Source: Rhodospirillales bacterium (GTDB lineage Bacteria > Pseudomonadota > Alphaproteobacteria > Rhodospirillales > UBA2165). Taken from it: 64,000 bases of DNA. Under the pieces are notes generated by a model, which was given only the letters and a program-made list of their open reading frames with translations, made no database searches and had not been told where the DNA came from. The position numbers and the translations under genes are program-made. The DNA is taken from positions 78,276 to 142,275 of the forward strand of contig CBDBMR010000011.1 in the NCBI GenBank assembly GCA_965207535.1. The letters are read 5' to 3'. Positions 56,407 through 58,525 of this stretch are shown piece by piece (position 1 is the first letter of the stretch; every line of letters starts with the position of its first letter).

Positions 56407-56540
56407 GCTCTCCGCCCCCTTCAGGTAGTCGTGGAATTTCGGTCATTGGTTTCTCCTGGTTATGTACCCCGATTCTCCCGGGGGTTCACCCCTATTCTGG
56501 CAACCGGTCTCTCATCACGCCGGCATTGATGCCATTAAAT

Positions 56541-56555
56541 GTTCATGTAATGTTC
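56541..56555. promoter_or_regulatory. Candidate alphaproteobacterial LexA (SOS) box GTTC-N7-GTTC
   Basis: GTTCatgtaatGTTC lies in an AT-rich patch 135 nt upstream of the ssb start. ssb and uvrA are classical SOS genes. Confidence 0.55.
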
Positions 56556-56653
56556 TTATAGCGGGTTTCTTGTTTCAGGGGAAGGGATTAGATGATCCAG
56601 GGAAGTTGTCTGTGTGGCGCGACGCAGGCCGTGACACTGGCGAGAAATGCGGG

Positions 56654-56770
56654 CTAGGTCCCGATAAACAGGTCGGGCTGGACCGACAGGTGGCGGATGA
56701 CGAGGCCGCGCGACTCGAGAGTTTCAGCGATCATGTTGCGGTGACAGCTCTTGGGGTCCCGTTCCAGACA
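56654..56770 (-). pseudogene. DUF488-family gene, C-terminal fragment (separated from its N-terminal part by the IS)
   Basis: The minus strand translates to CLERDPKSCHRNMIAETLESRGLVIRHLSVQPDLFIGT*, which contains the conserved DUF488 C..RDP..CHR motif. Confidence 0.7.
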
Positions 56771-56857
56771 TGGCGTAATTCCGGCGTTCACTCCCCTGGG
56801 CCTATGATGCGGGGTCGTGGGCGCCGCGCCCCGTTAGGCTAAGCAAGGAGAGTGACC

Positions 56858-57889
56858 ATGGGTGAGTACGTTGGCTTTGATGTTTCGAAGGAAGAGACAG
56901 CATTTTGCGTGAAGGACGGTGCAGGAGAGATTTTGGCGCAAGGCAAGGCGGAGACCGACCCTCGGGCGTTGTTTGAGGTGTTGAAGGAGCATTGTCTGTG
57001 TCCGGATCGGATTGTTCTGGAGACCGGGACACTGTCGGGCTGGCTGGCACGGAGTCTGGACGAGATGGGGATTGCGGTGGAAGTGATCGATGCCCGCCAG
57101 GCCCATGCGGTGATGCGTCTTCAACACAACAAGACCGATGCCAAGGACGCCGAGCTTCTGGCGGAGATCGCGCGCACCGGCTTCTGCCGCCCTGTATCGG
57201 TGAAGAGCGAGTTGGCCCAGGAGAGTCGGGTTCTGCTCAAGGCTCGGTCTCACCTGGTGCGCCAGCGCCGCGATACTCACAACACGATCCGGGGTCTTCT
57301 TGCCTCGTTGGGGATCCGTTTTCCCAAGGGCACGAGCAAGCTGCTCCGCGGAGTGCGCGCGCAGCTCGAGGACCGTCCCGAGCTACGCCCGGCGATTGCG
57401 CCGTTGCTGTCCTCGCTCACGGCGCTGGACAGCACGATTGCGGAGCTGGATGAGGCGGTCGCTGCGCGCGTCAAGGACGATCCGGCCTGCCGCCTGCTGA
57501 TGACCGTGCCCGGAGTCGGACCGCTCACGGCGCTGGCCTATGTGAGTACCATCGGCGACGCCGGGCGCTTCGCCCGATCGCGCAGCTTGGGCGCTTATCT
57601 CGGGCTGACCTCCAGACGTTGGCAATCGGGCGAGATGGATTACAGCGGGTGCATCTCCAAGCACGGCGACGCGATGCTGCGCAGCTTATTGTACGAGGCC
57701 GCCAACAGCCTGCTTGTGGTGGTGCGCCGGGCCCATCCGCTCAAGGACTGGGCGCGGCGGATCAAAAAGCGGACCAGCCACAAGAAGGCCTGCGTGGCCC
57801 TGGCGCGCAAGCTTGCGGTGATCCTCCATCGCATGTTGATCACTGGCGAGCCGTTCCGCTGGCCGGCCCGAGAGATTCAGGCGGCATGA
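56858..57889 (+). CDS. IS110-family DEDD transposase/recombinase
   Basis: MGEYVGFDVSKEETAFCV..., LETGTLSGWL, and the C-terminal MTVPGVGPLTALAYVSTIGDAGRFARSRSLGAYLGLTSRRWQSGE, typical of IS110. An AAGGAGAG RBS lies 7 nt before the ATG at 56858. Confidence 0.9.
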   Translation: MGEYVGFDVSKEETAFCVKDGAGEILAQGKAETDPRALFEVLKEHCLCPDRIVLETGTLSGWLARSLDEMGIAVEVIDARQAHAVMRLQHNKTDAKDAELLAEIARTGFCRPVSVKSELAQESRVLLKARSHLVRQRRDTHNTIRGLLASLGIRFPKGTSKLLRGVRAQLEDRPELRPAIAPLLSSLTALDSTIAELDEAVAARVKDDPACRLLMTVPGVGPLTALAYVSTIGDAGRFARSRSLGAYLGLTSRRWQSGEMDYSGCISKHGDAMLRSLLYEAANSLLVVVRRAHPLKDWARRIKKRTSHKKACVALARKLAVILHRMLITGEPFRWPAREIQAA

Positions 57890-58173
57890 GTGAGAGAACG
57901 GACTGCGTAGACGACGGTAACGAGCACGAGGAGACAACATAGTTCCGCACGAGCGGAAAGGCGCGTCCCCGCCGGGACGTCGGCCGAGGCCATCCCGTTT
58001 TATGTGTTGCAAGGCGGCTCAGGCCGCCAACAATGCGTCCTCTGACCCTGGGAGGCCGAAGCCAAAGGGCACCATCATGAAGCAAGCCAGCCAGAGCGCC
58101 GGCAAAGACTTCGTAGACAACCCTGTACCCGGCGGCGGCAAGCCCGGAGGAGTTGACCCGAACGCCGGAATTA
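57890..58173 (+). ncRNA. Candidate bridge (guide) RNA region of the IS1111-type element
   Basis: This is the 284-nt non-coding right end. TTATGTGTTG (58000-58009) is the exact reverse complement of the target flank CAACACATAA (58176-58185). AGACAACA (57932-57939) and TAGACAAC (58114-58121) repeat the junction sequence at 58172-58180. No structure model was run. Confidence 0.35.
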
Positions 58174-58525
58174 GACAACACATAAGGCACGGCAAACCCT
58201 TGGCGGCGAGCGCCGTCACCTCGGCCAGGGCCGCCTCCGCCGGCTCACTCGCAAGCTGACCGGCGTAGATGGAGCGGTAAAGGTCAACGTCGCCCGACTT
58301 GGCCGCGTCCCGCCCCGCTTCCGGGTTACCCAAGGCCTGCAGGTGCTTGTACTCGATCCCCGCGTCGTCGAGCGCGGCGTTCAAGGGGAATTTGCAGAAG
58401 TCGGGCTTGCGGGACCAGGGCACGTCCCGGACATCCACCAGCACGCTCACCCCGTCCCGTTCAAGGGCGGCGACGAACTCGGCGATGCTCGCGCCCTCGT
58501 AGCCGATGGTGGCAACGATGGTCAT
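58174..58525 (-). pseudogene. DUF488-family gene, N-terminal fragment (interrupted by the IS)
   Basis: MTIVATIGYEGASIAEFVAALERDGVSVLVDVRDVPWSRKPDF... is a typical DUF488 N-terminus. The family-like sequence stops at ...GLPCLMCC, where the IS begins. The remainder of track ORF 58019..58525 reads into IS DNA. Confidence 0.75.

Follow-up and report, generated by a model that had tools for sequence, protein, structure and literature searches.

A predicted bridge RNA in the right end of a recently active IS1111-group element from a Rhodospirillales bacterium

In a 64,000-nucleotide stretch of DNA from a Rhodospirillales bacterium (hereafter the window), positions 57970-58134 very probably hold the gene for a bridge RNA (seekRNA), which belongs to a recently active insertion sequence (IS) of the IS1111 group with the core dinucleotide AC. 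From sequence comparison we could establish the structure of this RNA, the positions of its guides and their covariation with the flanks and ends of the element. An earlier note, made from the letters of the window, had proposed an IS1111-type element with a bridge RNA in its right end, and with one 10-nt segment as the guide for the element's own target. Comparative analysis of the RNA and covariation support this proposal. In the mechanism that we propose, the RNA would form a three-way junction in which the loop of a target arm carries both target guides, overlapping at AC, and donor guides in the junction strands would enable this RNA to hold the junction of the circular donor as well, with the DEDD/Ser recombinase exchanging strands at AC. 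The layout of bridge RNAs and seekRNAs was already published in 2024, and the window element is a natural example of it, not a new system.

Table 1. Features of the element, its predicted RNA and its insertion site in the window
Feature	Position	Strand	Basis or remark
Left target (LT) GTTCCAG	56761..56767	+	Contiguous with 58178 onwards in empty sites
Left copy of core AC	56768..56769	+	Single AC in empty site; duplication also in relatives
Left-end terminal extension ATGGCGT, right donor (RD) in the circle junction	56770..56776	+	
Left subterminal inverted repeat AATTCCGGCGTTC	56777..56789	+	Exact inverted repeat of 58160-58172, 13 bp
IS110-family DEDD/Ser recombinase gene	56852..57889	+	345 aa; start GTG 56852 or ATG 56858
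AGACAACA, first same-sense match of the earlier note	57932..57939	+	Upstream of modelled RNA; not conserved
Upstream hairpin UUCCGC-ACGA-GCGGAA	57943..57958	+	Between tnp stop and RNA core; RNAalifold, compensatory changes
Predicted bridge RNA/seekRNA core	57970..58134	+	Three-way junction closed by GCCGGG (57971-57976)/CCCGGC (58128-58133)
Predicted target-binding arm, 82 nt	57982..58063	+	Helices GGC/GCC, GGCC/GGCC, UCCCG/UGGGA, then internal loop
Putative right target guide (RTG), 5′ strand of internal loop	57998..58009	+	Exact 10-nt complement; hypervariable block
Putative left target guide (LTG), 3′ strand of loop, UCCUCUG plus core AC	58038..58046	+	
Putative right donor guide (RDG) CCAU, junction strand	58072..58075	+	Complementary to ATGG of IS left end
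Hairpin arm GAAGC/G-CUUC with variable apical stem	58079..58112	+	98.5% of cells paired
Putative left donor guide (LDG) UAGACAAC	58114..58121	+	Same sense as right end AGACA plus core AC
Candidate -35 box TTGACC	58153..58158	+	TTGAC (58153-57) invariant in all relatives
Right subterminal inverted repeat GAACGCCGGAATT	58160..58172	+	13 bp, pairs with 56777-56789
Right-end terminal extension AGACA, left donor (LD)	58173..58177	+	Boundary from empty sites
Right copy of core AC	58178..58179	+	Empty sites
Right target (RT) ACATAAGG	58180..58187	+	Present in empty sites

The element, its boundaries and its copies

The window element carries the marks of the IS1111 group, i.e. a DEDD recombinase, subterminal inverted repeats (IRs) and a long non-coding region 3′ of the transposase gene (tnp), the latter two of which have been described as traits of this group (PMC11187229, PMC11208160). 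Its non-coding ends measure 82 nt on the left (56770-56851) and 288 nt on the right (57890-58177), and its 13-bp IRs, with 7 nt of terminal extension on the left and 5 nt on the right, fit the subterminal IRs of 7-17 bp expected of IS1111 elements. The predicted recombinase matches PF01548 (DEDD_Tnp_IS110; 2.4e-23) and PF02371 (Transposase_20; 6.1e-22), scores 275.7 bits against NCBIfam NF033542, 'IS110 family RNA-guided transposase' (cut-off 140), and can be aligned to the transposases of IS621 (8wt6) and ISCro4 (9t56). We read D10, E57, D96, D99 and S259 off this alignment as candidate catalytic positions. S259 sits within GLTSRRWQSG, in agreement with the group motif GL-x-P/S-xxxx-SG of the C-terminal Tnp domain, which in these recombinases follows an N-terminal RuvC-like DEDD domain. 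Sequence features of this kind support membership of the IS110 family, IS1111 group.

The IS spans 1408 bp (56770-58177) and is flanked by AC on both sides. It splits a DUF488-like gene (minus strand, 58525 down to 56654) between ...GLPCLMC and LERDPKSCHR..., and this gene is uninterrupted in five genomes of the same genus, where the empty site reads GTTCCAG-AC-ACATAAGG or a close variant. These five empty sites carry one AC, and they fix both termini of the IS as well as its AC core. Duplication of AC was also seen in relatives through their insertions into known sequence. Donor and target thus share only a short core, and insertion is site-specific and without a conventional target duplication.

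The earlier note had assumed a core of 4-5 bp, which the single AC of the empty sites refutes. A core of AGACA or of 4 bp was also rejected since AAACA, GGACA or TGACA is found at the left of other copies, and the empty site that such a core predicts, CCAGACAACACATAAGG, does not agree with the actual empty sites, CCAGACACATAAGG. Judging from these sequences, the appearance of a longer core is an accident of the single site in the window. An alternative core, CA instead of AC, predicts the same empty site in the element's own genome, so that the window alone cannot separate the two. CA was rejected on the evidence of relatives, whose loci we number with the prefix L (slashes mark junctions): the right junction of L024 reads AGACAAC/GG, nested insertions read CTAATAC/ATAGCGT (L019) and AGACAAC/CTTGGG (L021, L051), and LTG and LDG both end in AC. 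By sequence, AC is the only core that fits the relatives.

The element's own genome holds seven full copies of the IS, all 100% identical and located at different sites, plus fragments. The best explanation is that the window element is a recently active member of the IS1111 group. The sequence ACATGGCGT lies 5′ of the left repeat in six of the seven copies, with the left extension ATGGCGT identical in all six, and each of the eight right ends in this genome has AGACAAC-AC 3′ of the right repeat; beyond these the flanks diverge. Relatives have ATAGCGT or ATAACGT as their left extension, and nearly all of them share the right extension AGACA that is constant in the eight right ends. The eight insertion sites in this genome have C-N-R/AC/ACA in common.

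One of the seven full copies (L007; G000:C1:55116-56537) is aberrant. It is without the left extension ACATGGCGT, and its left repeat is preceded by TTATGTGTTGTCT, which is the reverse complement of a right end, the core and a good match to the right target. Both sides of this copy are thus of the right-end type, as would result from an inversion between a left and a right subterminal repeat of two copies. We searched the same genome for the reciprocal partner, with left ends on both sides, and found none among its left ends, of which only the six normal ones are present. The fragments in this genome (L008-L011, L013) include a 704-nt right-hand piece at 100% identity and older pieces at 93-97%. 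The degenerate right end of L010, AGTCA-AC followed by ACATGAAT, again fits the guide described below.

A conserved structure in the right end

A back-translated search, limited to one genome per species, yielded 49 related loci from several alphaproteobacterial assemblies, many of them with multiple copies; recombinase identity ranges from 64 to 81%. All relatives share the AATTCCGG/CCGGAATT repeats, with AATTCCGG as the conserved core of the left repeat, as well as the left end AT(A/G)GCGT and the right end AGACA. Their 3′ non-coding regions align well except for four short blocks, which correspond to the four putative guides described below.

For this alignment, RNAalifold predicted a long arm interrupted by an internal loop, together with a second hairpin and a closing helix, and we built a covariance model, R1, from a curated version of that structure. 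R1 matches the window at 57970-58134 with 148 bits, and the RNA was found in every copy and relative. Because the alignment was fitted to the model, the following pairing counts lean towards the structure: 89.6% of cells are paired, vs 31-47% when the partners are slid, and 18 pairs change on both sides (9.4 in shuffles), a number that none of 500 shuffles attained. The outer pair of the long-range closing helix occurs as G-C, A-U and C-G, and the apical pair of the second hairpin arm accounts for 20 double changes (helices 6 and 7). Beyond its internal loop, the target-binding arm continues with UGCA/UGCG and then an apical stem (58013-18 with 58023-28). Compensatory changes in the separate hairpin upstream of the RNA core fall in alignment columns 19-22 with 35-38. 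A local hairpin that competes with the closing helix, CGUCCC/GGGACG (~57964-57979), is invariant, so it offers no covariation test.

The earlier note had also proposed to fold the right end. As a single sequence, the trimmed window RNA adopts these helices too (z = -2.9), and the whole non-coding region folded as one piece (57890-58185) gives z = -0.96, an uninformative value. A scan of 56500-58500 against Rfam 15 (E <=10) gave no matching family, and the only hits, mir-595, ftsZ-DE and Sphinx_1, are at chance level and all far below their gathering scores. The consensus fold, the R1 matches and the fold of the trimmed RNA point to a conserved structured ncRNA within the long non-coding end.

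Target guides and insertion sites

The three strings singled out in the earlier note are present at the positions it had given. One of these, TTATGTGTTG (58000-58009), is the exact reverse complement, over 10 nt, of CAACACATAA (58176-58185). The latter stretch was described as two core bases plus eight flank bases; the empty sites give another split, i.e. the last two IS bases (CA, 58176-58177), the AC core (58178-58179) and the right-flank target (58180-58185). Within the RTG, the partners would accordingly be ACATAA of RT for 58000-58005, the core AC for 58006-58007 and the last IS bases CA for 58008-58009. The first two bases of the RTG, UU (57998-57999), could form wobble pairs with GG of RT, the other six of its eight bases being paired in Watson-Crick fashion. 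Put differently, the reverse complement of the RTG block is CA-AC-ACATAAAA, and the right junction is CA-AC-ACATAAGG.

We evaluated these matches with 3000 shuffles of a 270-nt non-coding stretch in which dinucleotide content was preserved. A reverse-complement run of at least 10 nt against a 36-nt window at the right junction arose in 6 of the 3000 (0.2%), and such a run in either sense against either junction arose in 55 (1.8%). The earlier estimate of well under 1% thus holds for the narrow search, but not for the search over all four modes. Same-sense runs of at least 8 nt occur in 29% of shuffles, and 8-mers are therefore not significant alone; the 10-mer is the sole string that is notable by statistics alone. 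One of the two same-sense 8-mers, AGACAACA, had been suggested as a guide, which its lack of conservation in relatives contradicts, and its match is probably due to chance. The other, TAGACAAC (58114-58121), is real, given that nearly every relative has AGACAAC at the aligned position, but it would be a donor guide and not a target guide as first thought.

The 1.8% frequency under all four search modes is also what could be said in favour of the 10-nt complement being a chance match in a GC-rich region of 270 nt. We give this explanation next to no credence, since in about 20 other IS types the corresponding segment complements the right junction of the element itself, and these junctions differ. 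A comparison of guide positions with other copies and their insertion sites, suggested in the earlier note, indeed shows the variable blocks tracking the flanks of each element. For the RTG, L027 and L046 have ACUGGUGUUG vs CAACACCAGT (10 of 10), L061 has GUUAAGGU vs ACCTTAAC (8 nt) and L060 matches at 11 of 12 positions; the RTG block matches the element's own junction with CAGAT in L041-43 and with CAAG or CAAC in most other relatives. Against the RTG, runs of 6-11 nt were obtained for the eight right junctions of the window genome, compared to a mean of 4.3 and a maximum of 7 for non-cognate junctions.

In its sense, the LTG corresponds to LT plus the core, and it would pair with the bottom strand. 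In relatives it reads CUAAUAC, CUGAUAC or CUUAUAC and matches the element's own left flank at up to 8 of 8 nt, or over 11 nt in L045. The window LTG is a weak match to its own LT, with 2 of 8 positions agreeing, or GAC plus one C. When guides were permuted among IS types (18 to 22 types), none of 20000 permutations reached the observed cognate match for RT, and none of 20000 for LT; related elements within one genome have guides and targets in common by descent, so these P-values overstate independence. Thus, the sequences support the 10-mer as a real guide segment of the element's RNA, whose guides covary with the targets of related elements, a covariation whose significance their relatedness inflates. 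As in the loops of bridge RNAs and seekRNAs, the RTG and LTG pairings overlap at AC, and the RTG (58000) lies 5′ of the LTG (58038), which is the order of IS1111 seekRNAs, where the match to the top strand precedes that to the bottom strand (PMC11187229).

These observations also bear on the view that the matches are features of the DNA, with internal copies of the ends serving as extra binding sites for the recombinase and no RNA being involved. AGACAAC is indeed found at the right end, at 58115-21 and, in the window element, at 57932-38. However, repeats of the element's own ends cannot explain why RTG and LTG covary with host flanks outside the IS, and the compensatory changes in the surrounding helices are typical of RNA. 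We therefore regard a purely DNA-level role as highly improbable.

Under the preferred reading, in which the 10-mer belongs to an RNA guide, the continuous 10-nt run may be 2-3 nt longer than the functional pairing, because relatives have U, C, A or G in the RTG at the position facing the first core base (A) and the terminal UG is helical in the free RNA. This UG (58008-58009) is positioned like the handshake guide of IS621, and could be handshake-like by analogy; in IS621 the handshake guide pairs with the donor strand after exchange (PMC11208158). In the single-sequence fold, the RTG bases 58002-58009 pair with 58031-58038 (CAAUGCGU) across the apical stem, and the RTG of the window element is therefore predicted to be partly sequestered in the free RNA. 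At the position of this extended helix, relatives have only a 4-bp UGCA/UGCG helix.

The insertion sites in the window genome show where the guides may constrain target choice. To the right of the core, positions +1 to +3 hardly vary (A, C, A). To its left, all sites have C at -3, and the base at -1 is a purine in each of them, as a G-T wobble would allow. The wild-type target sequence is GTTCCAGACACATAAGG. As a separate observation, the right junction of L014, CAACCAGGCGG, matches the guide of an L032-type variant from the same assembly over 11 nt and its own guide more poorly, which suggests either guidance in trans between co-resident variants, or turnover of the guide after insertion.

Donor guides and relation to known systems

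The junction strands of the RNA contain segments that match the element's own ends, as expected of the donor guides of a bridge RNA, with the RDG being short and skipping the core. The RDG comprises only 4 nt, without pairing to the core, and covaries with the left end (CCAU/ATGG, CUAU/ATAG, UUAU/ATAA); the only exceptions are L007, with its aberrant left end, and L044, which is decayed and has a G-U pair. In the LDG, AGACAAC is invariant in relatives except for L044, which has AGACAAU and in which the core of the LTG is also AU. As a single low-coverage copy with mismatched ends, L044 was treated as decayed and given little weight.

These donor segments are at the centre of another explanation, according to which only the 82-nt target arm is a functional guide (seekRNA), the ends are read by the recombinase through the 13-bp IRs, and CCAU and UAGACAAC are conserved for some other reason, such as RNA structure or protein contacts. 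It is consistent with the finding that an 82-nt seekRNA alone supports transposition of ISEc11 (PMC11187229), with the 4-nt RDG that skips the core, and with the invariant LDG, which apart from L044 offers no covariation test. However, in several separate lineages changes of the RDG accompany those of the left end, through three states, the core base of L044 has become U in both LDG and LTG, and donor-binding nucleotides in a multiloop have been described for IS1111 bridge RNAs (PMC11208160). On balance we think it unlikely that the target arm is the only guide, and prefer an RNA in which the junction strands would also contact the donor.

The donor would be a circular form of the element, with the expected junction ...GGAATTAGACA-AC-ATGGCGTAATTCC... 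By analogy with ISEc11, we infer a candidate promoter that would be formed only in this junction, consisting of the -35 box TTGACC, a 17-nt spacer and the -10 box CAACAT, which would span the right end, the core and the left end of the joined circle. The model for such a junction promoter is Pjunc of ISEc11, as cited in PMC11187229. In a sigma-70 scan of the linear element, no complete internal promoter was found.

Compared with the seekRNAs of the IS1111-family elements ISEc11, ISKpn4, ISPa11 and ISPst6 (Siddiquee et al. 2024, PMC11187229), the window element has the same kind of DEDD/Ser transposase of 330-350 aa, subterminal IRs, an RNA downstream of tnp, a top-strand match located 5′ in one stem-loop arm with an overlap at the insertion point, and a -35-like box near the right end that fits a junction promoter. 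Its target arm has the same length, 82 nt, as the short seekRNA that is sufficient in ISEc11 (PMC11187229), to which it may be equivalent. The window element differs in its guide sequences and its target (~C-N-R/AC/ACA(T)), in its alphaproteobacterial host, in inserting at ordinary chromosomal sites instead of REP or attC sequences, and in having an RNA that is predicted from sequence.

As in IS621 (Durrant et al. 2024, PMC11208160; Hiraizumi et al. 2024, PMC11208158), to whose recombinase structure (8wt6) the window protein aligns, there are four predicted guides (LTG, RTG, LDG, RDG). In both, left guides are directed to the bottom strand and right guides to the top strand, each including the core in the general bridge RNA logic (PMC11208160); target and donor share a 2-nt core, and the two bases beside the core complement of the RTG match the last two of the donor, in a handshake-like manner. 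Unlike in IS621, the window RNA lies in the right end and not the left, the strand order in its loop is reversed, with the right guide 5′ and the left guide 3′, and a three-way junction takes the place of the second internal loop as the location of its donor guides. The core dinucleotide is AC, not CT, the IRs are long (13 bp), and the RDG has 4 nt and leaves the core uncovered. A further comparison is with the predicted bridge RNAs of the IS1111 group. ISPa11, ISAzs32 and ISCARN28 are among six elements in Fig. 6 and Extended Data Fig. 10 of Durrant et al., many IS1111 bridge RNAs have donor nucleotides in a multiloop (PMC11208160), and the right-end location, the multiloop donor nucleotides and base-pairing patterns of 8-14 nt agree with what we found. 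Drawing on IS621, ISEc11 and related work, we would expect by analogy that the window RNA is made, is bound by the recombinase and directs insertion.

Several relatives have insertions at their own bridge RNA genes. In a related multi-copy genome (L019:2640-2700), one copy is inserted into DNA encoding the LTG of another copy (CTAAT-AC/ATAGCGT...), and right-end duplications join at AGACA-AC/CTTGGG (L021, L051) or at AC/CCGGCGG (L018). LTG-encoding DNA has the same sense as the left target plus core, and, judging from these sequences, the bridge RNA gene appears to contain a usable half-target that is hit by its own family. In L017, L020 and L051 (~2665), another insertion of ~1.1 kb, starting with CAGTGAGC, directly follows CTAATAC in the non-coding region, pointing to a second element with the same insertion site. 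Separately, most relatives, unlike the window IS, adjoin long imperfectly palindromic repeats (REP- or MITE-like, ~100 nt or more). Their right flanks lie at the edge of a palindrome in L015/16/18, L023, L034/40/50, L039/42/43, L024 and L038, and in L024 the target recurs, intact and inverted, at the far end of the palindrome (CTAAT-AC-CGTTTCCGG).

One could extend the proposed mechanism to a bridge RNA gene that acts as a built-in decoy target, combined with hybrid donor recognition, in the IS1111 lineage of the window element. Each insertion or duplication at LTG DNA would then destroy the target loop of the resident copy, and the RNA would read only ~7 nt at the right end and, without the core, 4 nt at the left, the 13-bp IRs presumably being read by the protein. 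We consider this extension rather doubtful. If self-targeting were frequent, it would amount to an intrinsic brake on copy number for RNA-guided IS elements.

For annotation, the DUF488 gene should be recorded as split by a 1408-bp IS with AC on both sides, and the non-coding end of the element should be annotated as an ncRNA. The understanding of the mechanism is unchanged by our results, which add a cleanly delimited natural bridge RNA of the IS1111 type, in a dataset of seven identical copies, eight right junctions, five independent empty sites and ~20 related guide variants. Such a natural dataset bears on which guide positions constrain the insertion site, here +1 to +3 on the right and -1 and -3 on the left.
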